NCBI GenBank assembly: GCA_016926555.1
Contig: JAFGOI010000013.1
Location: forward strand, 44,802-108,801
Direction: 5' to 3'
DNA from: Patescibacteria group bacterium
GTDB taxonomy: Bacteria > Patescibacteriota > WWE3 > UBA101185 > UBA10185
DNA: 64,000 nt
The translations under genes and the position numbers were made by a program. How positions within the stretch are numbered: the stretch's first letter is position 1; every line of letters starts with the position of its first letter. Positions 3,681-29,142 of this stretch are shown here, in pieces. The notes beneath the pieces were generated by a model, which did no database searches, was not told where the DNA came from, and was given only the letters and a program-made list of their open reading frames with translations.

Positions 3681-5209
3681 CATTAGGTCCTTTGTTTTTA
3701 ACATTAATTCCTCCTTTATGGCTTCTTTCAAATAATATAGGACTTATGTCCCTTCTAGATATATCTGGTTTGTTAGCTACATTTCTTTTTAGTACTGGAA
3801 TTACGCTCGTCGCGGTTAAATATGTTGTTAAAGATACTCAAAGGACATCGCTAGTCACTACTATAATTATATTTCTATTTTTCTGTTACAGTATGCTAAA
3901 TACTTCTCTTATGAGTTTTTTTCCCCTTTTACCTCCCGAATTTATCAAAGTGCTTACACTTATTATCTATATCCCTATTCTTCTTATAGGGTTTAAATTC
4001 AGGTTCCCAGATGTATTTCCATTGTGGAAATTTAACCAATTTCTAAATATTGTTCTCGGAACTCTGGTTGCCCTTTCAATGTATGATATTGTGCACATCA
4101 GTATATCTGAGAACATACCTATTCACCCTAAAAACATTCCTTCAAACATAGACAAGCCCTTTGTGTCTGACAACACTTATCCAGATATTTATTACATTAT
4201 TCTTGATGCACATTCACGCGCGGATAAAGTCGAAGAAATATTCGGCAGCAAATCAACAACAATATTAGTTGACGAATTGAAAAAAAGGGACTTTTATGTA
4301 GCAGAAAACAGCGTGTCAAATTACCACACTACTCTCTTATCCCTATCATCTTCATTAAACATGAATTATCTTCACAATCTAGTCGAAAAGCCCTCTTCGG
4401 ACAGAATCAACTACGTACCATTTAAAAACTTAATCAATAACTGCTCAATTCAACAAATCCTAGAAGAACACAGTTATGAAACTATAAATGTAAAGTCGAA
4501 GTCCATGTGTACAAACATTACAGCACATACTAGCTTTTTATATCCAAAACATCAGTTCAATGAAGCGGAAAGCAGACTAATCGAAATGACACCTCTCCTA
4601 GATCTGGGTTTTGGAGAAATATTGAAAAAACAAATGCATACCGGCATTGAATATGAGTTTGCAGTGCTACCAAAAGTAGCGTTAAAAGATGAGGCTACCT
4701 TCACATTCGCTCACATCTTATCTCCTCATCCCCCATTTGTATTTAGTAGCACAGGGGAAATGGTAGATAACATCCCTTGGAGAGGATATAAAGAAGCTGT
4801 TTCATATAAAGGCCTCGCTGAAGAATATCTAGCCGGATATAAAGACCAAGTAAGTTATATAGATACCCTAATTCTTGAAACAATAGACCTTATCCTAAAA
4901 AATTCAAAACAAAAACCAATAATTATAATCCAAGCGGACCACGGATCCGGATACAGAGAGCGTCTTTATCCCGAAGATTACAACACCGAAATTAAGCTAA
5001 AAGAAAAAATGTCCATACTTAATGCTATATATTTTCCCGATAATAACTATGAACTTCTGTACGATAACATCACTCCTGTAAATACATTCCGTGTGATACT
5101 AAATAAATTCTTCGGAAAGGATATGGAACTTCTCGAAGACAAAAGCTATCAAACAACCTGCGAAAACCCCTACGCGTATAGGGACGTTACAGAAATAGTA
5201 AAGAAATAA
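3620..5209 (+). CDS. membrane-anchored alkaline-phosphatase-superfamily protein (sulfatase/LtaS-like)
   Basis: 529-aa ORF with about 5 N-terminal TM helices, then a soluble domain with YIILDAHSR...IIIIQADHGSG. These resemble the metal-binding segments of LtaS/sulfatase-family enzymes. The start may be internal, since it overlaps the upstream gene by 61 nt. Confidence 0.5.
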   Translation: MSAVKKIKKNSLSYEQKNVLTLGPLFLTLIPPLWLLSNNIGLMSLLDISGLLATFLFSTGITLVAVKYVVKDTQRTSLVTTIIIFLFFCYSMLNTSLMSFFPLLPPEFIKVLTLIIYIPILLIGFKFRFPDVFPLWKFNQFLNIVLGTLVALSMYDIVHISISENIPIHPKNIPSNIDKPFVSDNTYPDIYYIILDAHSRADKVEEIFGSKSTTILVDELKKRDFYVAENSVSNYHTTLLSLSSSLNMNYLHNLVEKPSSDRINYVPFKNLINNCSIQQILEEHSYETINVKSKSMCTNITAHTSFLYPKHQFNEAESRLIEMTPLLDLGFGEILKKQMHTGIEYEFAVLPKVALKDEATFTFAHILSPHPPFVFSSTGEMVDNIPWRGYKEAVSYKGLAEEYLAGYKDQVSYIDTLILETIDLILKNSKQKPIIIIQADHGSGYRERLYPEDYNTEIKLKEKMSILNAIYFPDNNYELLYDNITPVNTFRVILNKFFGKDMELLEDKSYQTTCENPYAYRDVTEIVKK

Positions 5210-9044: not shown

Positions 9045-9067
9045 ATTCTATAGATTGACCTATAATA

Positions 9068-9096
9068 TTGCACCCCCTATAATTTTATAGTATACT
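9068..9096 (+). promoter_or_regulatory. candidate sigma70-type promoter (TTGCAC-N17-TATACT) in the AT-rich leader before the GC-rich island
   Basis: Read directly from the sequence. It lies about 200 nt upstream of the first island gene. No transcript data are available. Confidence 0.3.
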
Positions 9097-9303
9097 TCAA
9101 ACAATTTTCCAACTTGTAATCTGCTCTTAGTGCAGGTGAAAACTAATTATTATGGCACCTTGAAAACCCGTATGGGTTGATAGGTCCTACATACACTTAT
9201 ATTTCCCTCTAGTTATCCTGGGATTTGAGTGTATGTTGGGCTTATTAACCCGAATGAACTGGAAAACTGAATAAGAACATAAACTTTTGAAAGGAGGAAG
9301 GCC

Positions 9304-11112
9304 GTGGCGAAAAAGAAGAAAGGCCACGAGAAGAAGAGCGGAATTTCGATCTGGCAATTCCTCGGAAAAGCCCTATCGATTTTTACCGCTTTCTTCCTGT
9401 GGTTCGCCACAGGATTACCCTTCTCGCTGGTGCCCAAGTGGCAGAAGTGGACAGTGGCAACGGTTGCCGTTGCTGAAGGCGCTGATATTGGCAGGACTGC
9501 AATCTCATGGAACGCTGACCTGCTTCCTGATCTTACCCCAGAACTCATAGCCGTTGGCATTGAGAATGGGGTGCATCCGGATGCTTTGAGTGGGATGGTG
9601 AAAGCCTCTGCGCTCGAACGGAGCATTGCGTCCGGACTTCCAGAAGCCGGTACAGGCCTGAGAGTAGATATGTACACGATAGGCGGTATTGGTGATATCG
9701 AGAGTTCTCTCGATGTGGACTCCGTGAACCCGGAGGAAAAGAACGTTACCGGGGGATGCAACGCGGTGTGGGAGCTAATGCACCACCCGTTGCTGGACGG
9801 AGTTAAGGAGGTAAACGCCCTTCGCCAGATAGCTAAGGCACAGGGCTTAAACCTCTGGAAGATCAAGGGAAGCTGCGGAGCCGGCTGCGTGGGGTGGAAT
9901 CAAAGTCTCCCTACTAACTGGATCCGACTAATGGGACCCGAGTTCGACCCATGGAACCGCGAACACGCGCAAGAGTTCACAGCGCGTTACTTGGTCGCGG
10001 ATGGTGATTACTTCACCATGGGTCGTGAGCACGCAATTAGGGCTTACAACCCTAATGCAAGCGACGCGGAATACTTGCAACCAGTACTCGCAAGAGCAGC
10101 TCAGTTGCAGACGGCTTTTGAGGAAGCAGAGCTAGCTGCCCCGGAAGTTGAGCTCAGAACATCAGAGCTTACACTGGCGGGAGATGAAGAAACAGAAGAA
10201 AACATAGTTGAAGTCGAACTTGAGGAACCGACAACAGAGTCGGTTACTGAACTCGACGGATGGCCCGTTCCCCTAGGTACGGGCAGAACTGGCGTACCTT
10301 TTGGAGCACCGTCTAGTTACCAGCCTCAAGGGCATTCAGGGATCGACCTGGGCGTATCTACAGGCACCCCGATCAAGAGTGTCGGGTCCGGAGTCGTCGT
10401 CTACGTTGGTTGGTTCCCGCAGCAGGCGTTGTGGAAACTGAGAAACATCGGTCACGGTAATACTGTGATCGTGTACCACGGGGTAGCATCGGATGGAGAC
10501 CCTGTGTATTCCTACTACGCACACCTTTCTGAATTCGCTGTTGAAACCGGCGAGTACGTTCAGGAAGGCGATATCGTAGGTTTATCAGGAAACACAGGCG
10601 CATCCAGCGGTCCCCATCTCCATTTCGCCATCCGAAAGGGCGGTGGAATCGAGTATGACGGGGCTGATGCAGACGGCCGTGATTGGTCAGACGGCCAGTG
10701 GGTTGATCCAGATCTCTGGGTCAACAACACCCAAGGAGGTGGTGAATTCGAACTTACAGCAGAGGTCCCAATCAGAGGCAGAATCACCGGAGGTACGTCG
10801 AGAGAGGTGACAGTTATACTCTTGAATACTCCCTCCGTAGAATTTGCAGCTTGGTTGGGAAAGGTTTCGCGAGCGGCAGAACAAGGCGTGGCCATCCTTG
10901 AACGTACTCCTATCCCGGAAGTAGTTCGGGAAACGGAGCGTGTTTCTACTCTGACCGAGCTTCTCGAATCAATCAGCTCGGCAGGAAAAAGGTGGTATGT
11001 GCCAGTTTCTACCCTCGCCATAGCGGGTCAACCTAAAGAGCTAGGGCTCAACCCGCTGGTAGACTGGGCTATCATCAGTATCGGTGAAGAAACTGATAGC
11101 CCTTTTAAATGA
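9304..11112 (+). CDS. membrane-anchored M23 (LytM-type) peptidase with large N-terminal domain of unknown function; first gene of GC-rich island
   Basis: 602-aa ORF starting at GTG, preceded by AAAGGAGGAAGG. It has a Lys-rich N-terminus and one TM helix. The C-terminal domain carries M23 signatures GHSGIDLG (HxxxD) and GPHLHFAI (HxH), plus YYAHLSEF. GC content is far above the flanks. Antisense ORFs in this stretch are GC artefacts. Confidence 0.75.
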   Translation: MAKKKKGHEKKSGISIWQFLGKALSIFTAFFLWFATGLPFSLVPKWQKWTVATVAVAEGADIGRTAISWNADLLPDLTPELIAVGIENGVHPDALSGMVKASALERSIASGLPEAGTGLRVDMYTIGGIGDIESSLDVDSVNPEEKNVTGGCNAVWELMHHPLLDGVKEVNALRQIAKAQGLNLWKIKGSCGAGCVGWNQSLPTNWIRLMGPEFDPWNREHAQEFTARYLVADGDYFTMGREHAIRAYNPNASDAEYLQPVLARAAQLQTAFEEAELAAPEVELRTSELTLAGDEETEENIVEVELEEPTTESVTELDGWPVPLGTGRTGVPFGAPSSYQPQGHSGIDLGVSTGTPIKSVGSGVVVYVGWFPQQALWKLRNIGHGNTVIVYHGVASDGDPVYSYYAHLSEFAVETGEYVQEGDIVGLSGNTGASSGPHLHFAIRKGGGIEYDGADADGRDWSDGQWVDPDLWVNNTQGGGEFELTAEVPIRGRITGGTSREVTVILLNTPSVEFAAWLGKVSRAAEQGVAILERTPIPEVVRETERVSTLTELLESISSAGKRWYVPVSTLAIAGQPKELGLNPLVDWAIISIGEETDSPFK

Positions 11113-11150
11113 TCTAACTTCACACACATCAAATAAGAGGAGTTACAACA

Positions 11151-12089
11151 ATGGAAGCCAAGTTTTGGACGTGGATGAAAGCATTCGTGGTTATCATCCT
11201 GGCCGGAGCACTATCCGGGACGGGATGGTGGGTACTAGTCGGTCGCGGTCTCAAAGGAATCACAACCGCGCCGGGACAGGTGGCACAAGGATATACTGGG
11301 GAAGAGAATCCTTCGATTCAGATACCAGGAGGTCCTCACTGCCTGTTCGGAGGCAAACTGTGCGTCAACATGGGGGGTACCACTTTCTACCTCCCGACTG
11401 GCGAAGAAAGCTGGCTCGACGAAGGCGGCAGTGGAGGCAGTGAAAGCCAAATCGTCACGTTCGAAGTTCCGGAAGAGTCTGAGGACACGACTGGAGCTCA
11501 GACAGCACCGGAGACCAATACGGGTGGCGCAGCTGAGTACATTCGTTCAGGCAAGTGCGCCATGTACGTTGGGTTCCTCAAGGGACTTGGCGACGGCGCA
11601 GACTACACACTCGTAGAGGAACAAGCCAACGAAGTTCTGGCTGAGTGCCCCGGAAACGACGTGGAAGCCATGGAAGTGGCAGCCGCAGCAATGGGGGCGG
11701 TGGGCCTGTACAAGGCGCGACTCCAGGCGGAAGCCGATACAAGACAAATGGCGATCGACTCATGGAACACCGTCGCAATGGCAGCCGAAAGCCTCAGTCC
11801 GACGGACACACGAGGCTTTAAAAGCATCGTCACGGAGCTAGGTGGAACGTTTCACCTGGCCGAGATCGAAGGCTTGTTGCCGAAGATCCTACAGAGGATT
11901 GTTGGAGGCGGTGAGCCTTGCCATGTGTACGTCAACCCACCGACTCTTATGGCAGGCGACGTTAAGGCCGTAGAGATGACGGTTCAACTAGCCGTCCTCT
12001 GGGACCTTGGTATAGGCGCGGAAGGACATGGGCTGACCCTGCCGACAGTTCCCGAGTTCCCAGCGGACTATACACTGACGGAGGAGTGA
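11151..12089 (+). CDS. hypothetical signal-anchored or secreted protein (island gene 2)
   Basis: 312-aa ORF preceded by AAGAGGAG. It has an N-terminal hydrophobic helix (FVVIILAGALSGTGWWVLVG), is GC-rich and has no recognisable domain. It starts 38 nt after the M23 gene stop. Confidence 0.55.
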   Translation: MEAKFWTWMKAFVVIILAGALSGTGWWVLVGRGLKGITTAPGQVAQGYTGEENPSIQIPGGPHCLFGGKLCVNMGGTTFYLPTGEESWLDEGGSGGSESQIVTFEVPEESEDTTGAQTAPETNTGGAAEYIRSGKCAMYVGFLKGLGDGADYTLVEEQANEVLAECPGNDVEAMEVAAAAMGAVGLYKARLQAEADTRQMAIDSWNTVAMAAESLSPTDTRGFKSIVTELGGTFHLAEIEGLLPKILQRIVGGGEPCHVYVNPPTLMAGDVKAVEMTVQLAVLWDLGIGAEGHGLTLPTVPEFPADYTLTEE

Positions 12090-12099
12090 GGAGGCTACT

Positions 12100-12990
12100 A
12101 TGTCCAAGAGATCAAGGCTACTCGAGGAAAAGTACGCCAAAGAAAGGGCGAATCAGGACGCAGATGCCGCAAGAGCAGCCGTAGAGGAGCTGGAAAGTAC
12201 CTGGCAGGCTCGTAAGGGGCTTCTACAGCGACTCTATATCCCTCGGCCCAGCAAGCCGTCATTCCTGGGTTGGGGGTGCCTGTTCGAAATCCTCTACTGG
12301 ACGGCTGTGTTCGTGCTGTGGCTCTACACACCGAGCATTTTGGCACCAGCAGCCGGGATCGGATTGCGACTGTATATGTTGCACAGGTCAGGGAAGCTAC
12401 TGGGGACACTGCCGCAAGATGTACGCGACAAGATCGGCGGTGATGAGGATGAGAATGAGGAATCAGCCGGGAAAGGATCCGGTTTCTTCACCTTCGTGGT
12501 TAAGCTAGGGGTATCCCTGGCTGTCATAATAACCACCGTAGCAATCACCATCAGTGCCCCAGGGTTGGCAGCCCTCTTCGGACTGGTGCTGACGGGTATC
12601 AGCTTCATCTGGCTACGTAAACCAAGCCGACCTTGGCAGGACTCAAAAGGCTTGTGGCATATACACCCCGCCTTCCTGTACTCCCTCCTTACGGGACAGA
12701 TCGGGTACATGTTCCAGAGGTTCTCCTATGGACCGAAAGGAACACGAATTAGCCGCTGGCGGATCTTGAGCTTCGGACGAGGTGAAAGCAATGTGGGAGG
12801 ATCCACAACAGACATCGACGTAGATGTGACTATCCTATCGTGGTTGCTTGGCGCAGCCATTGTTACAATAGGAAGTTCCGGGGGAGATCCCGACGAAGCC
12901 TTCATACCAAGGTGGGCAGACATCGACACCATCCTCAACCACATCATGGAGAACATCAAGGACGAGGGCGATGGGGAGGACGATGAATGA
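12100..12990 (+). CDS. hypothetical polytopic membrane protein (island gene 3)
   Basis: 296-aa ORF preceded by GAGGAGG, starting 10 nt after the stop of gene 2. It has about 4 hydrophobic helices, an acidic loop and an acidic C-terminus, and is GC-rich. Confidence 0.55.
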   Translation: MSKRSRLLEEKYAKERANQDADAARAAVEELESTWQARKGLLQRLYIPRPSKPSFLGWGCLFEILYWTAVFVLWLYTPSILAPAAGIGLRLYMLHRSGKLLGTLPQDVRDKIGGDEDENEESAGKGSGFFTFVVKLGVSLAVIITTVAITISAPGLAALFGLVLTGISFIWLRKPSRPWQDSKGLWHIHPAFLYSLLTGQIGYMFQRFSYGPKGTRISRWRILSFGRGESNVGGSTTDIDVDVTILSWLLGAAIVTIGSSGGDPDEAFIPRWADIDTILNHIMENIKDEGDGEDDE

Positions 12991-13261
12991 AAGCCCAATG
13001 GACGGGGGACCGCCCCATGCAGTTTCGCCAGTTCACATGCGGGAGCAGCAAGAAAGGAGACAAGAAAAGCTAACTGCCCGGAGCCCTCCGCTCTACCTAC
13101 TACACACAATATGTCGTGTGCAGCAAGGGGAACGGGGGGCTTCGTCGTTTTATAGACTTTTTTTGAGTTAGAACCACAACACCTTTACTAACACTTTAGA
13201 TCGCAAAAATATTACTTACTTTCAGAAATGAGAAACCATTCAAAATCTAATAAAATAAATG

Positions 13262-15706
13262 CTAAACTTCAGGCCATTTAGAAACTGCAATAGGATTATC
13301 GTATTTTCTCGGAATATTTTCCCACACAGCCTCAGTCACAAACGGCATAAACGGGTGTAACAACTTCAAACTATTTAAAAACACATGTCTTAACACGCTT
13401 AACCCTATCCTTTTACTCTTTATATCTTCTCTATTCTTAACATCTTCAATATATATATCTGCAATTTCATGCCATAAAAAGTGGTACAGTGCGTCCCCTG
13501 CCTCCATAAATCTGTATTTCTCAAGGTTTTCAGTCACATATGTTACTAAATCTGAATACTTATTTAATATCTCCACATCCACCTCAATGAAATCCTCTGG
13601 ATCTAGCCACGGATTGCAGTCACAAGACTCTGTACAGGTACAATGCTTCAAAAACGGTACATCTTCACCAGTTTCTTCCTTGTATGAATCCGCCATCATA
13701 ATCATAAACCTTCCCATATTCCATATTTTGTTTGCAAAATTCCTGTAACCTCTAACTTTATCGGCGCTAAAAGAAGTAGTTCTAGCTGCTGAATTTCCTC
13801 CAACCAGCATACCCATTCTTAACGCGTCTGCTCCATACTTTTCCACAAATTCCAATGGATCTATAACATTTCCCTTGCTTTTACTCATCTTTTGACCTTT
13901 TTCATCGTCTATTCTTCCGTGAATATATACATTTTCATAAGGAACTTTCGGACCATCTTCATCATCCTTTGTTAAATAGAGCGAAAACATAATCATTCTA
14001 GCTATCCAGAAAAACAGAATGTCCCACATAGAGTCCATAAATTGGGTTGGGAAAAACTCCTTGTAATCGTCACCATCAGGATAACGCAAAGTTGCGAAAG
14101 GCCATTGCCCCGATGAAAACCATGTATCAAATGTGTCTGTTTCAGGTATGAATTCTTCGTTTATCTGATCTTGTCCAGCTTTTTTATCAAGACCCGTATT
14201 GATTCTCTTACCCGGATCTTCAGCGCTTATTTCATATCTTGCATCTTTTGGAACGATTACTTTTTGTAAACCTTCCTTAATTTCATCCAAACTAAAACCT
14301 TCTTCCCTAAGATCGTGCAATAATCCCTCATGACTGTTACCATCTTTGTCAATAAAAACAACAAAGATTCCCCCGTTCTCATTAGATTCAGAATCCTTTA
14401 CGTAATACCAAATAGGAATCCTAATACCAAAAACGGTCTGTCTGCTTATCGGCCAATCATGAATATTTTCAAGCCATTTGAGTGACTCTCTCTTCCACAA
14501 ATTTCTATTGTATTTAACTTTTCCCGTTCTTATTGCCTCTATAGCCATACTTGCCAGATTAATTTTCTTGTCAGTCATTTTTACAAACCAATTTGGCAAA
14601 AGCATAGGCTCAATAGGTTTTTTATCTTTATAATCAACAAGAAGGTTGTGTGTGTACTTCTCGTCTATTTTTTCTAAAGCGCCTTTTTCCTCAAGAATCT
14701 CTACAGTTTTCTTACGAGCTGAATGTACTCTCATTCCGGCTACATCAGAAGCCTCTTTTGTCATTTTCCCTTCCAAATCAACCACGGAAATCATGGGCAA
14801 ATTGTGTTTTTTACCTATTTCATAATCATTAAAATCGTGTCCCGGGGTAATTTTTAACGCACCTGTTCCAAAATCTATATCCACGTACTCATCTTCAATA
14901 ATTTTCATTTCTCTGCTATTTAACGGATTTATAGCTACCTTTCCAACATATTTTTTATACTTTTTATCTTTTGGATTTACCGCAATGGCAACATCGGCAT
15001 ATATTGTTTCTGGGCGCCCGGTCGCCACAGTTACAAATTCATCTGAATCCTTGATTTTGTATTTAACATAGTAAAGCGGAGAAACCTCTTCCACATGTTC
15101 AGTCTCTAAATTGCTAAAAGTGGTCCCATGCGTAGGAGAATAATTCACAAGATAGTCATCCCTGTAAACTAAACCATCTTTGTGCATTTTTTGAAAAGTA
15201 TCGTAGACAGTATCAATTACATGTTGGTCCAACATAAAAGTAGACCGATCCCAATCACAGCTCATGCCCATTTTTTTAAGCTGATCTATTGCCATATCAG
15301 AGTTTTCTAATACAAAATTTAAAATATCGTTGTACAAAGTTTCTCTGTCAAAATCAAATCTGGATTTACCTTCTTTTTTTAGTTTTCGTTCGTATACAAC
15401 TTGAGTTTCAAAACCGGCGTGATCTGTTCCCGGAACATACAAAGTTTTGTATCCTTGCATTCTTTTAAACCTTGTCATTAAATCCTGAATCGCATATGTC
15501 GCGTGCCCACAGTGCAGGGGAGCGTTAGCGTTTGGAGGAGGTATTAAAACAGTGTAAGTTTCATAAGTGCCATCAGCATTTTTCTTTACTTCCAAACCAG
15601 CGTCTTCTCTCATTTTTATACTTTTTTCAGGTGAAAAGACACCAAGTTCTTCCCACTTTTTATATATTTTTTCTTCCCACTCTTTGTGGTCGTATTTTTT
15701 GTCCAT
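13262..15706 (-). CDS. valS: valine--tRNA ligase (ATG at 15706 preferred over the track's GTG start at 15736)
   Basis: HIGH-type motif PLHCGHA and KMSKS are present. The N-terminus MDKKYDHKEWEEKIYKKWEELGVF aligns to the ValRS start. The upstream GTG extension would read through a hairpin and U-tract. Confidence 0.9.
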   Translation of the reverse strand: MDKKYDHKEWEEKIYKKWEELGVFSPEKSIKMREDAGLEVKKNADGTYETYTVLIPPPNANAPLHCGHATYAIQDLMTRFKRMQGYKTLYVPGTDHAGFETQVVYERKLKKEGKSRFDFDRETLYNDILNFVLENSDMAIDQLKKMGMSCDWDRSTFMLDQHVIDTVYDTFQKMHKDGLVYRDDYLVNYSPTHGTTFSNLETEHVEEVSPLYYVKYKIKDSDEFVTVATGRPETIYADVAIAVNPKDKKYKKYVGKVAINPLNSREMKIIEDEYVDIDFGTGALKITPGHDFNDYEIGKKHNLPMISVVDLEGKMTKEASDVAGMRVHSARKKTVEILEEKGALEKIDEKYTHNLLVDYKDKKPIEPMLLPNWFVKMTDKKINLASMAIEAIRTGKVKYNRNLWKRESLKWLENIHDWPISRQTVFGIRIPIWYYVKDSESNENGGIFVVFIDKDGNSHEGLLHDLREEGFSLDEIKEGLQKVIVPKDARYEISAEDPGKRINTGLDKKAGQDQINEEFIPETDTFDTWFSSGQWPFATLRYPDGDDYKEFFPTQFMDSMWDILFFWIARMIMFSLYLTKDDEDGPKVPYENVYIHGRIDDEKGQKMSKSKGNVIDPLEFVEKYGADALRMGMLVGGNSAARTTSFSADKVRGYRNFANKIWNMGRFMIMMADSYKEETGEDVPFLKHCTCTESCDCNPWLDPEDFIEVDVEILNKYSDLVTYVTENLEKYRFMEAGDALYHFLWHEIADIYIEDVKNREDIKSKRIGLSVLRHVFLNSLKLLHPFMPFVTEAVWENIPRKYDNPIAVSKWPEV

Positions 15707-15912
15707 AAAAAACCTCTCATTACTGAGAGGCTCCACAAACTAATTTTAGTGGAAGGTACCAACCTTCTCTATACTTTATTTACAGCTATAACGGGCATTC
15801 CCGTCGGGTTCTAGTTTCCTGCGGAGCGCGTCAAAACAGCGCTACTAGACGCAAAATTTCTTCCCGAAGCATCACCTGGTGACATGATCCAAGCTCAGAC
15901 GCTTTTAGTTTA
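15707..15912 (-). promoter_or_regulatory. candidate T-box-like leader of valS: terminator/SD-sequestrator hairpin plus alternative antiterminator with UGGUACC bulge
   Basis: On the minus strand, CCUCUCA-GUAA-UGAGAGG followed by U6 abuts the ATG, and GAGAGG also serves as the SD. Upstream, GAGAAGG-UUGGUACC-UUCCAC...GUGGAG-CCUCUC can fold as helix A1, a 7-8-nt bulge and helix A2, mimicking the T-box motif AGGGUGGNACCGCG. CCGUUA (F-box-like) lies about 25 nt further 5'. The segment is locally GC-rich (visibly above the surrounding AT-rich DNA). Confidence 0.4.
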
Positions 15913-20087: not shown

Positions 20088-21399
20088 AAAAAGGATTGTG
20101 TATCAAGGACAAGCCAAGTGTAATCCAGAACAATAAATGGGTTTGATGCATCGTAATTAAGTAGTGATCAAAACACCCTATAAACACCAACGTAAAAAGT
20201 GGGACTAAAAATAAGGTGTTATTACGTAGACACGCTTTTAATGTTAGATAAATTAGACATAAAAACAGCCCTGCTGAAAACACACCCGCTTCCGAAAGAA
20301 TGAGAACAAATATATTATGCACCGGTTGAATAAACCTCACAGATGTATATATCACCTTGTTATCTTCAATAACCGACGTAGATGTTCCATAACCCAGCCC
20401 AAAAAGAGCATTATCCTTAATTATTCTGTAGTTAGAAACAAGCAAATCAGCCCTTCTATAAAAAGAGGAATATTTTGATAAAAGCGCACTTTTTCGAAAA
20501 ACAGGAAGGCTTAATGAAAATATCAGTGTAACAACAATCAGCAAATAAACAAGGCCAACAAACTTTTTGCCTTTTGACATAAACAACAAAAATAAACTCA
20601 AAATAAAACAGACATAAGACACAATGCTGAGGGTTATTAGTAGATTAACCAGAGCCAACAATAGAACCAGGTAATATAGGCCGGTATATTTGTTTTTATA
20701 CAAAGATAGCTTAAATATTAATTTGCTCTTCTTATTTGAAAACTCCACCTCCAAAACAAGAAACATTAAGAACCATACGATAAAAATAGTTAAATATCCC
20801 GAAAATGTATTCGGATGTCTAAACAGCCCATATGGCGGAATAAATTCACTGCCGAAAAAATACTCACTCGTGATTCCTCTAGTCTGTTTGTTGTAAGGTT
20901 GCTCGCCAAAATATAAATAATTGTTAAACACTGATCCCTGTTTAATTAACTGCATAACCCCTAAAACACTTAGCAAAAAAATCGAAACAAAAGATACACA
21001 CACTATATTTTTTATGAACTTTTTTGTACTGACTTCATATCTCACATAAAAAGTAATCAAGCTATATAAAAAGGTCCTCAAAAAAAATGTGACGGAGGCC
21101 ATTTTCCTTTCGGAATTTATAATTGAAAAGATCAACGAAAACAGAAACAAAAAAAGTACCTGACCATACTTATCAAAAAATATACTTCGAAAAGAATCTT
21201 TATCTTTCACAAGTTCCAAAAACCAGAAAAACAGGAGTAATACAACAAGTAAGTCCTGCACGTATATAACAGGGATTAAATAATCAACAGTTAACCCATA
21301 TACATAAGAATCCTTGACAACATAATGCTTACCTATATTAAGAGGCAAAAAAAACACGAGTACTAAAAAGATGTATTGAGATATTTTCTTGTGACTCAT
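20062..21399 (-). CDS. polytopic membrane protein, O-antigen ligase/polymerase (Wzy_C)-like
   Basis: 445-aa ORF with 10 or more TM helices and a large loop near the C-terminal third. It overlaps gatD upstream by 4 nt. Confidence 0.45.
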   Translation of the reverse strand: MSHKKISQYIFLVLVFFLPLNIGKHYVVKDSYVYGLTVDYLIPVIYVQDLLVVLLLFFWFLELVKDKDSFRSIFFDKYGQVLFLFLFSLIFSIINSERKMASVTFFLRTFLYSLITFYVRYEVSTKKFIKNIVCVSFVSIFLLSVLGVMQLIKQGSVFNNYLYFGEQPYNKQTRGITSEYFFGSEFIPPYGLFRHPNTFSGYLTIFIVWFLMFLVLEVEFSNKKSKLIFKLSLYKNKYTGLYYLVLLLALVNLLITLSIVSYVCFILSLFLLFMSKGKKFVGLVYLLIVVTLIFSLSLPVFRKSALLSKYSSFYRRADLLVSNYRIIKDNALFGLGYGTSTSVIEDNKVIYTSVRFIQPVHNIFVLILSEAGVFSAGLFLCLIYLTLKACLRNNTLFLVPLFTLVFIGCFDHYLITMHQTHLLFWITLGLSLIHNPFYAYNTRDA

Positions 21400-22166
21400 T
21401 TATACTTAAATGAGGCAGTGTAAGCAGGAATCACTAACGAATTATCTATAGAAGGCAGACTGTCCATTCCTAAACTTTTAGATATTAAGTAATCAGCTAT
21501 ATGCGCATTCCTTGATAAAAGGGGACCGTGGAAATACGTTCCCAATGTATTCTTAAATAAGATTCCCTCAGTATCATCTTCCCCATTATTACCATAACCT
21601 CTTTCAACATACGCAAGAGGGGCCATGTCATCAGCTAAATAGCTTCTCCCTCCGTGATTACAAAAACCTACAATTTTACCGCCTAGAAAATTAACCTCAG
21701 AAAAGACAGGATCACTAAGAAAATCGCTATTCAAGCGAGCTACAACATTACCAACACACCTTGCTTTTCTACCCCCAAAGTGTTGCGTGTACATATCATA
21801 AATACCCAGTCCTTCTATAAATGTACCGTCATCCGCTTTATAATAGTGCCCTAATAATTGATAAGCTCCACAAATAAACAAACCAACACCTCCCTTTTGA
21901 ATATACTCATTAAGATAATCTCCTTTATTTTTTAACAAATCCTTATATACCTCTTTCTGGCCTGAATCAGGGCCGCCCCCCATGAAAACAATGTCCAGAG
22001 CAGACATAGCTTTCGAATTTATTTTCAAATCAGTATCAATATGTACAATGTCAACATATATATTTCTTCTCAGGGCGCGCATTGTTAATATTTCAACATT
22101 TCCGTTATCTCCATATAAATTGAGCTGATCCTTATAAAAATAGCCAATAGTTAATTTTGTGGTCAT
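21396..22166 (-). CDS. gatD: lipid II isoglutaminyl synthase, glutamine amidotransferase subunit GatD
   Basis: LNLYGDNGN, ICGAYQLLG (catalytic Cys), NHGGRSY and GYGNNGEDDTEGILFKNTLGTYFHGPLL match Staphylococcus GatD segments almost residue for residue. It overlaps murT by 4 nt. Confidence 0.85.
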   Translation of the reverse strand: MTTKLTIGYFYKDQLNLYGDNGNVEILTMRALRRNIYVDIVHIDTDLKINSKAMSALDIVFMGGGPDSGQKEVYKDLLKNKGDYLNEYIQKGGVGLFICGAYQLLGHYYKADDGTFIEGLGIYDMYTQHFGGRKARCVGNVVARLNSDFLSDPVFSEVNFLGGKIVGFCNHGGRSYLADDMAPLAYVERGYGNNGEDDTEGILFKNTLGTYFHGPLLSRNAHIADYLISKSLGMDSLPSIDNSLVIPAYTASFKYK

Positions 22167-23332
22167 AATATAGACCTCCCAACTAACAACTTACGCAGCT
22201 CAAGCATAGATGAATAATTGGGATAACACACAATTGTTTTATCTTTCATACACTTATTTATCTTTTTCAAGCTCTCTTTTATACTCCTGTTTATATTATC
22301 TTTACCAAGAGTTACACCTGCATAATCCAACCTTAGCGCCATTTCAAGATAACGCGTACCACTTACATAAATATCTTTAGAATGACAAACTTTTTTTAGC
22401 AAAACAGGGTCAATATCATATATCCAAGAAACATCTTTTCCGTCAGGGATATTATCGTTTAGTATAAACAATAGAGAGTCTATATGGATTTTTTGAGACA
22501 TAAACATTTTTAAGTTATTGTTGAAACTAGCGGGATTTTTAGCCAGATATATTTTATATATATTCTGAGCATAATTTATTTCCTCCCCTCGACCATAGGC
22601 TAATTTAAAATCGGAAAGTGCAGAGATACTCACTTCTTCCGAAATACCCATTAATTCAACTGCAATTAAAGCCGCATTTAAATTTTTCGCATTAAACTCA
22701 CCTGATAAAGAAGTCTTATCTAGAGCAGTGTAAGAAGAGTCAAAACCATAAGTATCCAGCGTATCATCCACAAAAAAAGGCTTAAAATATTCCTGGGATT
22801 TATCCAACACTATTTTGGTAGGGAAACTAAACTTTTTTAATCCAGCCTTCCATTTATTTAAAACTATATCTGGTTCAAAATATCTATCTAATTGATCTCG
22901 GGACACATTCATTAACAAAGCAGTAACATCAAGTGAAGAAGTTCTATGTTTGCCAAGTAAATCCAGAAAATAGGGAAAAAACAACTCGTCCACTTCCAAT
23001 ACAGCAACATCTCTGTTTAACCTACCAAGTATATTTGTACCTAAAAGTAAAGATGATATGATGCCATTAAGAAGATTCGCACCGCTTTTATTGCTAATTA
23101 CTCTGTAATTATTATTCTGTAAGATATGACTGATTATTTTTGTAGTTGTAGTTTTACCATTAGTACCAGTAACAAGTATGAGTTTACTCGGTAACATGCA
23201 GCAAATTTTTTTAACTATTTTGGGATATATTTTTAGTGCAATATATCCTGGATATGTGTACCCCGCACCTTTGTTTATGATTTTGGAGATTCTGCTGATC
23301 AATTTTGAAATGTAAGTTGTTATAAGATACAT
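22163..23332 (-). CDS. murT: lipid II isoglutaminyl synthase, Mur-ligase-like subunit MurT
   Basis: P-loop LVTGTNGKTTTTKIISHIL of the Mur ligase central domain, a DUF1727-like C-terminus, and the conserved murT-gatD order. Confidence 0.8.
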   Translation of the reverse strand: MYLITTYISKLISRISKIINKGAGYTYPGYIALKIYPKIVKKICCMLPSKLILVTGTNGKTTTTKIISHILQNNNYRVISNKSGANLLNGIISSLLLGTNILGRLNRDVAVLEVDELFFPYFLDLLGKHRTSSLDVTALLMNVSRDQLDRYFEPDIVLNKWKAGLKKFSFPTKIVLDKSQEYFKPFFVDDTLDTYGFDSSYTALDKTSLSGEFNAKNLNAALIAVELMGISEEVSISALSDFKLAYGRGEEINYAQNIYKIYLAKNPASFNNNLKMFMSQKIHIDSLLFILNDNIPDGKDVSWIYDIDPVLLKKVCHSKDIYVSGTRYLEMALRLDYAGVTLGKDNINRSIKESLKKINKCMKDKTIVCYPNYSSMLELRKLLVGRSIL

Positions 23333-23340
23333 ATATCCCC

Positions 23341-23621
23341 AGAGTTATAAAATTTATTATATATATAATACGTAGTAGTTGTAGTAGATGTTGTGTATTT
23401 GTGGAATAGACTTTCTTTGGTTGTGGTATCTGTCAAATTAAATGTATCTGTGCGTGGATAAGTTTCTTTTACTGTACCCGCAGCGTTATTTTTAACTCCA
23501 CATACATAAAAAGGGTTATTTATATACAGAGTTTTTGTTGATAAGATATGAATGTATGTGGGTATCCTTGTGGATAAATCAACTAGTTTATCCACAAACC
23601 TCATAGTTTTGTACTTATTTA
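23341..23621. other. putative chromosomal origin (oriC): AT-rich unwinding region plus DnaA-box cluster
   Basis: Perfect TTATCCACA or TGTGGATAA 9-mers at about 23569-23577, 23588-23596 and 23609-23617. 8/9 matches at about 23453-23461 and 23536-23544. AT-rich (TA)n-containing stretch at 23341-23400. Lies immediately downstream of dnaA. Confidence 0.55.
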
Positions 23622-23649
23622 TCCACATTTTTCCAAAGTTTTTCACAAA

Positions 23650-25050
23650 TTATTCCTCGAATATCATTTGCTTTATGTTAACTATATCTTGCCTTAGTTT
23701 CCCCATTTTTGTAAGTTCTTCCCCTATTTTATCCACACCGTGCATAATTGTTGTGTGATCCCTACCTCCTAAAAATTCTCCGATGGTCATAAACGGTGTG
23801 TCTGTAATATCTTTAATAAGATACATGGCTACTTGTCTGGGGATAACTATTTCTTTTGTTCGTCTTTTCCCTTTTAAATCGGTTGATTTAACAGAGTAAT
23901 AAGTACACACATATTTTAATATTTGGTTCATATTTACAGGTATTGAAGATCTTTCTTTAATCGTGTGCCCGAGTATGTTTGCAGCGTTATCAACAGTGAA
24001 ATCCAACCCGGATGATCGAATGCTTGTTAATACCTGCATGTAAGCTCCTTCTAACTCTCTAATGTTTGTAACCACTTTTTCTGCAATAAAATCAATGACA
24101 TCATTTGGGATAGTGTCTTGGTTTTTGTCTCTTAAATTCCTTAAAATAGCTATTCTCATCTCTAAGTCAGGAGGTTGTATGTCTGCAATTATTCCTGAAG
24201 CAAAGCGTGAAGTAATTCTATCTTCAAGTTTAGTAAATTCTTTAGGTGGTCTATCTGAAGTTATTACTATCTGTTTTTGAGCCATGTAGAGTGTGTTAAA
24301 TGTGTGGAAGAATTCCTCTTGAGTAGTCTCCCTACCTATTACAAATTGGATGTCGTCAATTAGTAGGACATCCGCCTTGCGAAACTTATTTCTAAATTCG
24401 TTAGAAGCGTATTTTCCTCTTCTTCCACTTTGAATTGATTCAATTAACTCATTTGTGAATTGTTCCCCTGTTGTATAAATAACTTTCATGCCAGGTTTAG
24501 ATTGAATAATTCTGTTTCCAATTGCTTGCAGTAGATGTGTTTTTCCTAGTCCCACGCCGGAGTACATAAATACAGGATTGTATTGTTCCCCCGGTCTTTC
24601 TGCTACAGCTATGGCTATTGCATAAGCAAGGTTGTTGTTTCTTCCTGTAACGAAAGTTTCGAACGTAAATTTTGGTGTTAAATTTGATCTTTGCTGTTTT
24701 TCCCTAAAAAGATTTTCCTGGTCCTGCTTTTGTGTAAATAAGGGACCTAGTACAGTATCTTCTTCCATGCCTTCTTCTTCGTATTGTTGCGTTGTTTTGA
24801 ATACTTTGGATGTTAGCTTGCTTTTAGTGTCTGTAGTTTTGTCTATTACCATTTTTATGTTGTCTATGTATTTTGAGTCTATATTCCTTTTAGTAAATGT
24901 GTCTTCACAAATGATCTCATATTTATTGTCAGATATTTTATTAAGAGTTGCCTTGTTGCTTAAAGATCTAAATATAGGTGATTTTATTTCTATTTCACCT
25001 ATAATTGCTTTCCACAATGTAGTTGTATCTACTTGAGTTTTCTTAGACAT
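23650..25050 (-). CDS. dnaA: chromosomal replication initiator DnaA
   Basis: AAA+ Walker A GVGLGKTHLLQAIGN, a C-terminal DNA-binding domain, and a probable start at MSKKTQVDTTTLWKAI. A perfect DnaA box TTATCCACA lies upstream at 25119-25127. Confidence 0.9.
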   Translation of the reverse strand: MSKKTQVDTTTLWKAIIGEIEIKSPIFRSLSNKATLNKISDNKYEIICEDTFTKRNIDSKYIDNIKMVIDKTTDTKSKLTSKVFKTTQQYEEEGMEEDTVLGPLFTQKQDQENLFREKQQRSNLTPKFTFETFVTGRNNNLAYAIAIAVAERPGEQYNPVFMYSGVGLGKTHLLQAIGNRIIQSKPGMKVIYTTGEQFTNELIESIQSGRRGKYASNEFRNKFRKADVLLIDDIQFVIGRETTQEEFFHTFNTLYMAQKQIVITSDRPPKEFTKLEDRITSRFASGIIADIQPPDLEMRIAILRNLRDKNQDTIPNDVIDFIAEKVVTNIRELEGAYMQVLTSIRSSGLDFTVDNAANILGHTIKERSSIPVNMNQILKYVCTYYSVKSTDLKGKRRTKEIVIPRQVAMYLIKDITDTPFMTIGEFLGGRDHTTIMHGVDKIGEELTKMGKLRQDIVNIKQMIFEE

Positions 25051-25154
25051 ACTTATTTGTTGGTATAATAACATTTCGTGGACAGATTACGGGGCAGTAG
25101 ATATAAATTTAGCATGAGTTATCCACAATGATAAAGCAACGTGTGTTGGTTTAA

Positions 25155-25902: not shown

Positions 25903-26331
25903 TTATTTTTCTAAACTTTTAAAGTATCTCCTTAATATTATACCAGCAGCTAGATGGTCTTTGTGTTGCCCTCTTTTTTGGGATATTTCCAGCTCAATAG
26001 AGGCTTCAAGTGCCTCTCTTGAGGAGTCTAGTTCTTCCTGGAATTCCACTGGTTTTTTTGATATCGCTTTTAACAAATTGGCGAACTTTCTAACTTTCTT
26101 GGCCTGATTGGTATCTTTTCCGTCATGTGTTACAGGGAGTCCCAGTACATATAGATCTACCTTATTCTGCATACCGATTCTTGTTATTTCTTGTGCGGCA
26201 AATATGGAATTTTTTCCCGGGATAATATTTAGAGGTTGAACTAACTCGTTTCTTCCGAGTGCAATACCTATATTAGTTTCTCCGTAGTCTATTCCTATAT
26301 AAGTTTTTGCTGATGTGTTTCTTTTATTCAT
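25903..26331 (-). CDS. ruvX: YqgF/RuvX-like RNase H-fold nuclease
   Basis: 142-aa ORF with YIGIDYGETNIGIALG at the N-terminus (RuvX LGxDxGxKxIGVAxS pattern). Confidence 0.55.
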   Translation of the reverse strand: MNKRNTSAKTYIGIDYGETNIGIALGRNELVQPLNIIPGKNSIFAAQEITRIGMQNKVDLYVLGLPVTHDGKDTNQAKKVRKFANLLKAISKKPVEFQEELDSSREALEASIELEISQKRGQHKDHLAAGIILRRYFKSLEK

Positions 26332-27845: not shown

Positions 27846-29142
27846 ATTTTACTCCTGTTATTTCACTATATATTATTGAAAGGCAGGCTAGAGGCAGCCA
27901 TTCAGAATTGTTTGTTCTTCCTGTAGCGTCATTTATTTTACTTAGATCCATAAAATCAAGTTTTTTAAAATCCGGAGGCTGTTTGAAAGGAACAGATCTC
28001 ATCCAAGGCTCCTCAGATACAGTTTCTACAAGGTTTGGAATATGTGTCGCGGCTCCGGTTAGATATACTTTGGGAGAGAAGGTTTTGACGCCGCTAAATT
28101 CACCAAATAGAAGTTCAAGACCTTGCAGCCATACGTCTAGAGTTTCAAGCAAACACGAATGGACAATGGCGCTTTCTCCGGGAGTTAATTTCTCAGATAT
28201 AAATGCCTCCAACACTTTTTCTGCTTCCATGGGAGTTAAACCCATTTTTTCACCTAGATCCTCAATAAAATGATTGTATCCTATATTTAAACTTCTGGTT
28301 GCAGCGATTCCCTTTCCGAATACGACGGCTACATTAGTCGAATCATTGCTAGTATCGATGATAACGTAGTCGGTGTTTTCAAGGGAGGCAAAGTTTAACT
28401 GTTGCGCGATTGAGTATGTTTCCGATCCTACTGCAAATAAGTTAAGACCGCTAGCGTCGATGACTTTCTCAAGTGTTCTTAAGTGAAACTTTGGGCAGAA
28501 AGAGTTAAATACGGCAGTTTCAATGACCTTTCCTTCCTTCCCTTCCAGTTCGTCAATAAATTTTCCGTCCAGTTTTGTATATACGTTTGATGTGGTTATT
28601 ACTTCTAAGTCTGCGTCGGGATTACCCGTTTTATTTAAATAGTCATTTTGGACCTGCATATAGGCTGCTTCTAGAAGCTGTTTATATATCTTGTCTATAT
28701 CTTTTTTCGAAATTGGGGATTTAGTTCCTCGATTTACTCTTACAGTTGTCATTAATCCCATACACATGTCTCCTGTTACGCCAACGATAACTTGTTTGAT
28801 ATTTTCTTCCAGATCTTTGGTAGCGTTTACTACAGCAATTTTTATTGCTTCTTCTACATCGGATTGGTCTATAATTGTCCCAGAGAGTACACTTCCCAGT
28901 TCCAGCTTCTGCTTGTCATGACCTATAATTTTACAGGAAGATTCTTCCTGGTACATAACTAAACACCTCACATAAGAAGAACTTATCTCCAGAGTAAAAA
29001 ATTTATTAGAATCTCTTTGGGACTTTTTCAGGAAGGGTAGCATAACCATTGGCTTTATTTTAGAATATTTTGCTTTAAAAGGGAATTTTACCAGGAGGTA
29101 TTTTGGGAGGAGGCGGTTTTTCTGTTTCGTTAAATCCGGCAC
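27838..29142 (-). CDS. actin-fold ATPase of FtsA/PilM family
   Basis: 434-aa ORF. Alternating beta/alpha segments with Gly-rich phosphate-loop-like regions (VIVGVTGD, YVIIDTSNDSTNVAV) are typical of the ASKHA FtsA/PilM fold. No ftsZ is adjacent. Confidence 0.45.
   Translation of the reverse strand: MPDLTKQKNRLLPKYLLVKFPFKAKYSKIKPMVMLPFLKKSQRDSNKFFTLEISSSYVRCLVMYQEESSCKIIGHDKQKLELGSVLSGTIIDQSDVEEAIKIAVVNATKDLEENIKQVIVGVTGDMCMGLMTTVRVNRGTKSPISKKDIDKIYKQLLEAAYMQVQNDYLNKTGNPDADLEVITTSNVYTKLDGKFIDELEGKEGKVIETAVFNSFCPKFHLRTLEKVIDASGLNLFAVGSETYSIAQQLNFASLENTDYVIIDTSNDSTNVAVVFGKGIAATRSLNIGYNHFIEDLGEKMGLTPMEAEKVLEAFISEKLTPGESAIVHSCLLETLDVWLQGLELLFGEFSGVKTFSPKVYLTGAATHIPNLVETVSEEPWMRSVPFKQPPDFKKLDFMDLSKINDATGRTNNSEWLPLACLSIIYSEITGVKYD

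Follow-up and report, generated by a model that had tools for sequence, protein, structure and literature searches.

The 64,000-nucleotide stretch of Patescibacteria DNA analysed here, hereafter called the window, contains a block of GC-rich sequence (about 9290-13150), and the locus raises the question of what the first gene of this block encodes and on which cell wall the product would act. An earlier note, made from the DNA alone, had proposed an acquired, membrane-anchored M23 peptidase with a possible lysozyme-like module. The gene probably encodes a peptidoglycan hydrolase which is anchored in the membrane, faces away from the cytoplasm and has two active sites, and stands at the head of a horizontally moving cassette of accessory membrane-protein genes. 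The evidence is computational and consists of domain identities, conservation of the catalytic residues and of the cassette, atypical composition and differing insertion sites.

The open reading frame at 9304-11112 on the forward strand, hereafter gene 1, is a real gene which corresponds to 602 amino acids with a GTG start codon. An identical protein is found at NCBI, labelled 'M23 family metallopeptidase [Patescibacteria group bacterium]'. The predicted bifunctional hydrolase consists of five parts: a transmembrane (TM) anchor, a transglycosylase domain, an acidic linker, an M23 domain and a C-terminal module. A Lys-rich N-terminus (MAKKKKGHEKK) is followed by one hydrophobic helix, identified from hydropathy (residues about 14-43, 9343..9432, + strand), as the single anchor of the earlier note would require, and the anchor residues W33, F34, T36, G37 and P39 are invariant in the four closest members of the family. 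The topology is predicted to be N-in/C-out (type II). Residues 1-290 were not assigned to any family by Pfam, NCBIfam or PHROGs, in keeping with the description of a domain of about 330 amino acids without a family, but this region resolves into a fold of about 225 amino acids and an acidic linker of 55 amino acids (residues 276-330, 10129..10293, + strand), the latter being poorly conserved (identity within the family is only 18-35 %, and the alignment has gaps). An AlphaFold2 model of the full-length protein, based on an alignment of four sequences, had a pLDDT of only 38.6.

The M23 (LytM/lysostaphin-type) zinc metallopeptidase domain (residues 331-478, 10294..10737, + strand) was identified with Pfam and with phmmer searches of the PDB. 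Residues 343-447 matched Peptidase_M23 (PF01551) with an E value of 1.2e-25 and 89.9 bits, compared to a cutoff of 28.7 bits, and the HxxxD and HxH motifs which had been read from the sequence are present as HSGID (344-348) and HLHF (438-441). TagE, zoocin A and lysostaphin were matched in the PDB at 2e-16 to 3e-14 with their catalytic residues aligned. The predicted zinc ligands (H344, D348 and H440) and the predicted catalytic residues (H407 and H438) were all conserved in this alignment, which had been suggested as a check, and in all M23-bearing members of the family (8/8), suggesting a catalytically complete zinc endopeptidase. The domain does not, as had been supposed, form the C-terminal 150 or so amino acids of the protein: it is followed by a conserved, non-catalytic module of 124 amino acids, recognized from the family alignment (residues 479-602, 10738..11109, + strand), which ends in the motif IAGQP-x-x-L-x-L-x-P-x-x-x-W (573-588), is predicted to be helical from low-confidence secondary structure, and has no significant family match. 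In the relative P0004 the N- and C-terminal modules are kept and Polysacc_deac_1 takes the place of M23; among the relatives the second catalytic domain may be M23, a deacetylase or VanW-like.

The N-terminal domain (residues about 50-275, 9451..10128, + strand) did not match the Pfam SLT_2 model directly, even at E ≤ 1, and the family members P0122 and P0123 scored 18.4 and 22.3 bits against a cutoff of 24.3. A search of the PDB with an N-terminal profile of four sequences (hmmsearch) also gave nothing at E ≤ 10. A profile built from four members of the family only, however, retrieved Pfam-certified SLT_2 proteins from among 1.84 billion representative sequences, and an hhalign comparison of the family by itself (10 sequences) with the SLT_2 set gave a probability of 99.9 % (E = 3e-33, 180 columns), with the vES column of SLT_2 opposite the iES of the family, i.e. 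at the position of Glu133. This residue (codon 9700-9702, + strand), part of IESS at residues 132-135, is the candidate catalytic glutamate; it is invariant in the core family (10/10), and E133-S134 was aligned with the ES or ET of SLT_2 proteins and PDB chains, the single Glu followed by Ser/Thr thus lying at the catalytic position of Slt35 and SltB1. Among 34 sequences, E133, Q200, Y248 and N249 were invariant or nearly so. With a mixed profile, MltB, SltB1 and Slt35 were matched in the PDB at about 1e-18. The structure prediction that the earlier note had called for gave a confident AlphaFold2 model of residues 45-292 (34-sequence alignment, pLDDT 90.3, pTM 0.88) with a predicted lysozyme-like fold nearest to solved family-3 enzymes: the best seven Foldseek matches were all family-3 transglycosylases, with modest TM-scores of about 0.47. 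Both profile and model thus support a family-3 lytic transglycosylase of the SLT_2/MltB-like type, in divergent form.

The proposal of a lysozyme-like module with a catalytic Glu is supported computationally in this respect, but the family is 3 rather than 1. The protein has no match to family 1 (Pfam SLT, PF01464), and between E133 and the Q-containing motif there is a distance of 64 residues, compared to about 10-20 for the E-S...G-L-M-Q of family 1; the A-Y-N motif (AYNPN, 247-251) is the sole resemblance of the domain to that family. The GGCNAVWELM segment which had been taken as the equivalent of GLMQ aligns to a different segment of SLT_2, and the counterpart of G-x-x-Q-(F/L)-M-P-S-T is G197-W-N-Q-S-L-P-T-N-W (197-206). 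The other motifs of the domain are GSCGAGC (189-195), DPW (215-217) and FTARYL (225-230).

The catalytic Glu-Ser/Thr of the family-3 enzymes (E. coli MltB/Slt35 and P. aeruginosa SltB1 and SltB3; SLT_2, PF13406; CAZy GH103) aligns with that of gene 1, the glutamate of Slt35 being E162, and their G-S-x-A-G-A-x-G-x-x-Q-F-M-P-S-T motif and D-x-W...A-x-Y-L helix are recognizable as GSCGAGCVGWNQSLPTNW...DPW...FTARYL. The gene 1 domain is only about 15-20 % identical to these enzymes, below the threshold of the Pfam model, and differs from them in having insertions around the catalytic helix, two cysteines (C152 and C191) that are invariant within the gene 1 family, and the family-1-like A-Y-N-P-N. 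It also forms one protein with further parts (TM anchor, M23 domain and novel C-terminal module) and occurs in a monoderm-type organism. The closest sequence relatives of the N-terminal domain outside the family (E about 1e-9 to 1e-7) are CPR proteins of about 450 amino acids with SLT_2 and M23 domains (WWE3/Katanobacteria KKS34861.1-type and Ca. Gottesmanbacteria OGG01487.1), which have the same order of transglycosylase and M23. Unlike gene 1 they match Pfam SLT_2 directly and have no C-terminal module, their length is smaller, and their operon, of Band_7, four unknown genes, the hydrolase and one more unknown gene, differs from the cassette.

The hhalign alignment with the SLT_2 set places an insertion of 9 residues directly after the catalytic Glu and one of 14 residues ahead of its helix, and these family-specific insertions could have altered or abolished transglycosylase activity. 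The domain would then be a non-catalytic, lysozyme-fold module for peptidoglycan binding or regulation, and gene 1 a monofunctional M23 endopeptidase. The failure of Pfam SLT_2 on the protein and the position of the insertions beside the catalytic helix are compatible with this, degenerate hydrolase domains are frequent among cell-wall proteins, and matches to EnvC, NlpD and SpoIIQ, non-catalytic relatives of M23, provide a precedent. Nevertheless, the Glu-Ser/Thr, G-x-x-Q-x-x-P and Y-N motifs are invariant throughout the family and aligned to their SLT_2 counterparts, as would be expected for an active site, which makes a loss of catalysis doubtful. The earlier call of a protein cleaving both glycan and peptide is supported computationally by the SLT_2 profile homology, the AlphaFold2 model and the invariance of E133.

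Gene 1 is the first gene of a cassette that comprises three genes in the window and four in most other loci, all coding for membrane proteins. Gene 2 (11151..12089, + strand) codes for a bitopic membrane protein of 312 amino acids with one N-terminal TM segment and a conserved C-terminal domain with the motif GGTFxL..IEGL..GGGE.C..PP, and gene 3 (12100..12990, + strand) for a polytopic membrane protein of 296 amino acids with a conserved soluble C-terminal domain. The gaps between genes 1 and 2 and between genes 2 and 3 are 38 and 10 nt. Gene 4, where present, codes for 86-97 amino acids with two TM segments and a charged C-terminus. In the window its place is taken by a GC-rich non-coding tail of the island (12991..13150, + strand), tblastn found no remnant of it in 12991-13300, and the cassette may here be decaying. 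No significant match to genes 2-4, nor to the N-terminal domain or C-terminal module of gene 1, came from Pfam, NCBIfam, PHROGs or PADLOC; a profile search for homologues of gene 2 found two proteins only, the word index limiting its sensitivity, and genes 2-4 had no sequence homology to the genes next to P0127 and P0128, two distant relatives.

Upstream of gene 1, a promoter-like site of the sigma-70 type (TTGACC-17-TATAAT, 9055..9083, + strand, 11 of 12 positions matching) lies in AT-rich, host-like DNA; the match is to the consensus alone, and similar numbers of such sites arise in shuffled sequence. It is followed by a long imperfect hairpin in the putative 5' leader of gene 1, seen as an inverted repeat with no T-run behind it (9169..9256, + strand, MFE −45.6 kcal/mol, z = −6.4). 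All 8 loci examined have an analogous hairpin ahead of gene 1, at a distance of 10-65 nt, and the hairpins share no sequence similarity. The one Rfam match on the island, miRNA-like and lying on this hairpin, was considered spurious. A Shine-Dalgarno sequence, AGGAGG, was read 6 nt ahead of the GTG (9292..9297, + strand), and AGGAGG or GGAGG is also found just 5' of the gene 1 start in other loci examined.

The GC island is real, with a GC content of 52-59 %, compared to about 37 % in its flanks, which code for L25 and ValRS. The source genome is metagenome-assembled and the steps at both ends of the block are sharp, as they would be if a fragment of another organism had been mis-joined. However, at least six other independent assemblies, among them a contig of 865 kb, have the same cassette embedded in low-GC Patescibacteria DNA, and the promoter-like site, hairpin and ribosome binding site at the left junction are laid out as in other loci, so that an assembly chimera is very improbable indeed.

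At least six distinct loci of Patescibacteria, with no flanking genes in common, were found to carry the cassette, and the order of genes 1-3 is identical in the window, L001, L002, L004/5, L007/8, L009 and L010/11. Shared synteny with L005, suspected from similar ORF lengths, was rejected on account of differing flanking genes. The cassette is rare, 1.84 billion representative proteins yielding about 13 clusters. In every locus found, the GC content of the cassette was 10-25 points above that of the flanks, and GC3 was 0.53-0.62 in the cassette and 0.29-0.40 in host genes. This contrast and the differing genomic positions bear out the suggestion that the gene was acquired, and support an accessory element which moves horizontally among Patescibacteria, in which genomic islands and transfer within the phylum have been reported to be common (PMC12455944). 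No convincing integrase, transposase, flanking direct repeats or attachment sites that would explain the movement were found, nor any tRNA within the 64 kb.

The atypical composition and variable insertion sites might also point to a mobile element, cryptic or degraded, of which the cassette would be the lysis module, with gene 1 as a signal-anchored endolysin and gene 4 as the holin. Gene 4 is indeed holin-like where it occurs, and the M23 domain matches many PHROG families of phage lysins and tape-measure proteins. However, gene 4 is missing from the copy in the window, relatives of the N-terminal domain were found neither in IMG/VR viral contigs nor among INPHARED phages or plasmids, and the flanks examined were without phage structural, integrase or replication genes. 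Viral fold matches were weak (E ≥ 0.013), and known endolysins differ from a stably anchored enzyme of 600 amino acids that has a conserved TM motif. The tail-associated hydrolase gp13 of phage phi29 (PDB 3csq/3csr) is a soluble virion protein which, in contrast to gene 1, has neither TM anchor nor C-terminal module; its structural likeness is far below that of SltB1, and the cassette has no phage context. A lysis module is accordingly improbable.

CwlT of ICEBs1 and PrgK of pCF10 combine an N-terminal membrane anchor, a glycan-cleaving domain and a peptidase domain. In such monoderm conjugation hydrolases, anchored glycan-cleaving and peptidase domains open the wall locally (PMC12102498), and gene 1 shares this layout. 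It could serve a type IV secretion system or pilus as a VirB1-like hydrolase that makes space, in the manner of PrgK, TraG (pIP501) and CwlT, and VirB1 homologues with an added M23 domain have been reported in Patescibacteria (PMC12102498). A gene for a VirB4-like ATPase is present in the window (29075-31525), but it is 18 kb away with housekeeping genes in between, and no secretion genes adjoin the cassette in the window or in L004/5, L008, L009 and L010, whereas PrgK, TraG and CwlT are encoded within type IV secretion operons. The known enzymes also differ in having family-1 SLT/muramidase and CHAP or NlpC-P60 domains (PrgK also LytM), and the commoner CPR proteins with SLT_2 and M23 belong to another conserved operon. 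A role in secretion is as improbable as the lysis module, and the likeness to secretion and phage-tail hydrolases which the earlier note had seen holds for the domain architecture and not for the neighbouring genes.

If the anchored two-enzyme hydrolase is the correct reading, the single acid/base would be Glu133, cleaving the MurNAc-GlcNAc bond to give a 1,6-anhydro-MurNAc end, and the M23 endopeptidase, with zinc held by H344, D348 and H440 and with H407 and H438 as catalytic residues, would cut peptide cross-links, the two activities jointly making a hole in the sacculus. The TM helix with its conserved motif, the transglycosylase and the helical C-terminal module are the constant parts of the family, and the second enzyme is exchangeable. 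The genes of two membrane proteins (of three in most loci elsewhere) would share a transcript with gene 1, and these proteins may dock onto the constant parts so as to position the hydrolase or gate it; judged from co-occurrence, the products of genes 1, 2 and 3 may form a complex.

As to the target, there is roughly an even chance that the producer's own wall is opened locally; the wall of an attached host cell is appreciably less probable, and lysis is unlikely. An epibiotic Patescibacterium might, in line with the suggestion of the earlier note, use the protein as a weapon to breach the wall of the cell to which it is attached, with the second enzyme tuned to the peptidoglycan type of the host. 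As an accessory element, the cassette is rare and moves horizontally, and swaps of the second catalytic domain are typical of arms-race enzymes. Peptidoglycan hydrolases have been proposed as host-wall degraders in the CPR predator Vampirococcus (PMC8080830), and epibiotic growth of Southlakia requires peptidase and lysozyme homologues, according to work cited in PMC12102498. Against this, the membrane anchor is conserved and gene 1 has no evident cleavage or secretion signal, so the protein should stay on the producer membrane beneath its own wall, and its partners in the cassette are all proteins of the producer membrane. Such a weapon is therefore rather unlikely. Somewhat more speculative still is a self-contained, Patescibacteria-specific wall-breaching kit in circulation, in which the constant modules of the anchored two-enzyme hydrolase would plug into bitopic, polytopic and small two-TM partners, and the second enzyme, whether M23, VanW-like or a deacetylase joined by a possible Cys-peptidase, would be exchanged so as to fit the peptidoglycan chemistry of the host cell on which the epibiont feeds.

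The type of enzyme is already known, whereas the cassette has not been described before. Since the public label names only the M23 metallopeptidase and the transglycosylase is missed by standard libraries, the wall-degrading capacity of Patescibacteria is under-counted. The finding would be ordinary if the gene 1 protein remodels the producer's own wall only. Few gene classes have been linked by experiment to the epibiotic way of life of Patescibacteria, and cell-wall hydrolases are one of them. This makes a mobile, modular hydrolase cassette a concrete candidate, open to testing, for a part in host interaction or in remodelling of the envelope, and the wall-breaching kit, if true, would be a host-range determinant of these ultra-small epibiotic bacteria.

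The protein encoded by the ORF at 9304-11112 (+), hereafter gene 1, has 602 amino acids and contains a Peptidase_M23 domain (Pfam, residues 343-447, E=1.2e-25), which places it in the M23 family. The motifs H344-S-G-I-D348 and H438-L-H440 are present, as had been reported in the earlier note together with the ORF itself, and H407 is the third catalytic histidine. All zinc-binding and catalytic residues are kept in each of the eight core family members (the closest relatives of gene 1 by N-terminal profile) that carry an M23 domain. The closest solved M23 structures are those of the active enzymes TagE, zoocin A and lysostaphin, whereas the non-catalytic relatives EnvC and NlpD scored much lower. 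The M23 domain does not form the C-terminal 150 or so residues, as first thought, but extends over residues 331-478 and is followed by a conserved module of 124 amino acids (479-602). This module has 25-39 % identity across the family and a terminal motif, I-A-G-Q-P-x-x-L-x-L-x-P-x-x-x-W, and was not recognized by any family library searched. At the other end of the protein, a Lys-rich N-terminus precedes a single hydrophobic helix (approximately residues 14-43), in which W33, F34, T36, G37 and P39 are invariant in the four closest members.

The region between the helix and the M23 domain had been described as a single unassigned domain of about 330 amino acids, one stretch of which loosely resembles the catalytic region of family-1 lytic transglycosylases. 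Residues 1-290 were indeed not assigned by Pfam, NCBIfam or PHROGs, but the region consists of approximately 225 folded residues and an acidic linker of 55 residues. Only three relatives of the N-terminal region were retrieved when 5.8 billion proteins were searched with a word index: P0002 and P0003, with 44-45 % identity to the gene 1 product over the full length, and P0004, with 47 % identity across the N-terminal 43 %. When 1.84 billion cluster representatives were searched exhaustively with HMMER, a profile made only from the four N-terminal regions identified 41 proteins at E<=0.001, including nine below 1e-30, which constitute the core family, and four at 1e-17 to 1e-10. A tail of matches aligned at profile positions 160-270, and many of these were Pfam-certified proteins of the family-3 transglycosylase domain SLT_2 (PF13406), often also with an M23 domain (e.g. 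P0136, 6e-22; P0143, 6e-23; P0134, P0137 and P0139, approximately 3e-8). Two core members had SLT_2 matches below threshold in the homologous stretch.

In the HMMER alignments and in a MAFFT alignment of 34 sequences, I-E133-S-S of the family was superposed on V-E-S/T of the SLT_2 proteins, and Q200, Y248 and N249 were invariant or nearly so. E133 is the glutamate proposed in the earlier note; the GGCNAVWELM stretch, proposed there as the 'GLMQ' block, aligns with another helix, and the counterpart of the block is G189-SCGAGCVGWNQSLPTNW-206, followed by D215-P-W and F225-TARYL. Ten core sequences and 15 SLT_2 sequences, each set realigned independently, matched in hhalign with 99.9 % probability (E=3e-33, 180 columns), and a mixed profile matched MltB, SltB1, Slt35 and SltB3 in the PDB at 6e-19 to 2e-13. 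The AlphaFold2 model of residues 45-292, based on the 34-sequence alignment, had a pLDDT of 90.3 and a pTM of 0.88, and its best seven Foldseek matches in the PDB were all family-3 transglycosylases (E 2e-4 to 2e-2, TM approximately 0.47). On the basis of these profile matches, the hhalign and PDB comparisons and the modelled fold, the N-terminal domain is predicted to be a divergent family-3 lytic transglycosylase, which agrees with SLT_2 in profile, fold and catalytic residues without reaching the Pfam threshold. Peculiar to the core family are two insertions, one of 14 residues ahead of the catalytic helix and one of 9 residues behind the glutamate, and the invariant cysteines C152 and C191. 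The proposed pairing of a lysozyme-like, glycan-cleaving fold with an endopeptidase is retained, with family 3 replacing family 1. The finding is real, the main inference of the earlier note is upheld with these corrections, and the enzyme represents a divergent form of an architectural class that is already known.

Gene 1 begins with a GTG codon, 6 nt after AGGAGG, and is followed on the same strand by gene 2 (11151-12089 (+), 312 amino acids) after 38 nt and gene 3 (12100-12990 (+), 296 amino acids) after a further 10 nt. The three genes occupy a block with sharp edges (approximately 9290-13150) of 52-59 % GC, compared with about 37 % elsewhere in the window, between the genes for ribosomal protein L25 (8379-9044) and ValRS (13262-15736 (-), assigned by translation). 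A protein identical to the gene 1 product, encoded on a 170.8-kb contig, is already in NCBI under the name 'M23 family metallopeptidase [Patescibacteria group bacterium]'. An antisense ORF of 217 amino acids (9213-9866 (-)), which overlaps gene 1 and whose BLAST matches are antisense ORFs in loci L001 and L003, was rejected as a separate gene, being the shadow of the conserved sense strand. Between a promoter-like site and the ribosome binding site of gene 1 there is a very stable hairpin (9169-9256 (+), -45.6 kcal/mol, z=-6.4). Each of the eight loci compared (the window, L001, L002, L003, L005, L008, L009 and L010) has a hairpin 10-65 nt 5' of gene 1 (z -3.1 to -7.8); these hairpins are not similar in sequence, and some resemble terminators belonging to the preceding gene.

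In every sufficiently long locus, gene 1 relatives are followed directly by homologues of genes 2 and 3, in the same order. Besides the window, this cassette is found in L001, L002, L004/L005 (Ca. Pacebacteria, PFJN01000054.1), L007/L008, L009 (an 865-kb contig) and L010/L011. Gene 2 encodes a bitopic protein and gene 3 a polytopic one; the C-terminal domain is conserved in both, and in the gene 3 product it is soluble. Neither belongs to a known family in Pfam, NCBIfam, PHROGs or PADLOC. Most loci have a fourth gene (L009 14004-14264; L010 13883-14176; L008 7595-7879; L001 4907-5131; L004 approximately 4707-4975), encoding 86-97 amino acids that include two TM segments and a GG-x-x-GEEI motif and end in a charged tail. 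Its size, TM segments and charged tail are holin-like. Gene 4 is absent from the window, where 12991-13150 contains only 160 nt of GC-rich non-coding DNA.

No flanking genes are common to different cassette loci. In the Ca. Pacebacteria locus (L005 6466-12944 with L004 5077-10703) the cassette follows the genes for NusG, L11 and L1, and in the remaining loci it lies beside radical-SAM, methyltransferase or AbiEii genes. A ribosomal protein gene is upstream of the cassette both in the Ca. Pacebacteria locus and in the window (L25). L10- and L7/L12-like ORFs, read from translations, occur approximately 5 kb further downstream in L004/L005, after ThrRS, an uncharacterised ORF and PIN-like genes. 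In L010 (449-8859) the cassette adjoins three AbiEii toxin genes and two AAA_14/DUF4143 ATPase genes, surroundings which look like a variable defence or mobile region.

The GC content of the cassette is 10-25 points above that of its flanks in every locus, and in the window its third-position GC is 0.53-0.62, compared with 0.29-0.40 in host genes. Across the window, L001, L002, L004/L005, L008, L009 and L010, cassette GC rises with host GC (host to cassette, roughly: 30 to 40, 34 to 47, 37 to 55, 42 to 57 and 45 to 60). An offset that tracks host GC is explained neither by simple recent transfer nor by full amelioration. No integrase genes, convincing flanking repeats or tRNA were found, nor any relatives in IMG/VR, INPHARED or PLSDB. 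A chimeric assembly is unlikely, because the cassette recurs in independent assemblies.

The second enzyme of the protein varies. P0004 (847 amino acids; L002 2612-5155), the hydrolase of a variant cassette, has Polysacc_deac_1 (2e-23) and approximately 250 extra residues instead of M23, while its TM helix, transglycosylase and C-terminal module are retained. In more distant members the transglycosylase is combined with regions resembling VanW. Judging from these replacements, the constant parts are the TM helix, transglycosylase and C-terminal module, and the second enzyme is exchangeable. The extra residues of P0004 have no significant Pfam match; they contain a GLNCGG...HHHV pattern that could be part of a Cys-peptidase. 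In L015 (1054-7174), the gene for the distant relative P0128 (TM, transglycosylase and VanW-like regions) is followed by genes for bitopic (433 amino acids), polytopic (460 amino acids) and small (105 amino acids) membrane proteins, mirroring the architecture of cassette genes 2-4 with no detectable sequence homology.

By sequence, the nearest relatives are SLT_2+M23 proteins of approximately 450 amino acids from other CPR lineages, WWE3 and Gottesmanbacteria. The genes for these commoner proteins (WWE3 type) belong to a conserved operon different from the cassette. That operon (L012 2139-10095; L014 1437-10161) contains Band_7, four unannotated genes (approximately 110, 500, 233 and 734-944 amino acids), the hydrolase and a gene of 233-245 amino acids. 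The architecture also resembles that of PrgK, TraG and CwlT from monoderm conjugation systems and of phage phi29 gp13, and PMC12102498 mentions Patescibacteria VirB1 homologues that have acquired extra M23 domains. Membership of gene 1 in a secretion or phage system was rejected on its genomic context. Elsewhere in the window, 29075-31525 (-) encodes an 816-amino-acid VirB4-like ATPase (matching DUF87/HerA and TraG-D_C), followed by two ORFs with no Pfam match (27838-29142 and 26328-27845 (-)); this region, 18 kb from the island, is possibly a Patescibacteria type IV secretion locus. These searches brought up no earlier description of the cassette, of the modular exchange of the second enzyme or of the persistent GC offset.

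From sequence and model, the gene 1 product is predicted to be anchored N-in, so that its transglycosylase domain and its M23 active site both face the outside of the membrane. By family knowledge, the Glu133 domain would cut glycan strands to 1,6-anhydro-MurNAc and the zinc site would cut peptide cross-links, and the two activities combined could open the sacculus. The TM motif and the C-terminal module are conserved and the protein strictly co-occurs with membrane proteins, which suggests a membrane complex that might position or gate the hydrolase. The window also contains genes for DnaA, MurT/GatD (stem-peptide amidation) and MurJ (21396-25074 (-) and 37748-39388 (-)); MurJ and MurT/GatD point to an organism that synthesises peptidoglycan of its own, in which the stem peptides are amidated. 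The target may be the organism's own wall, opened locally, or the wall of an attached host, or the enzyme may serve cell lysis. The accessory status of the gene and the swapping of domains tend to favour a role in interaction or conflict; the permanent anchor, beneath the wall of the producer itself, tends to favour action in cis.
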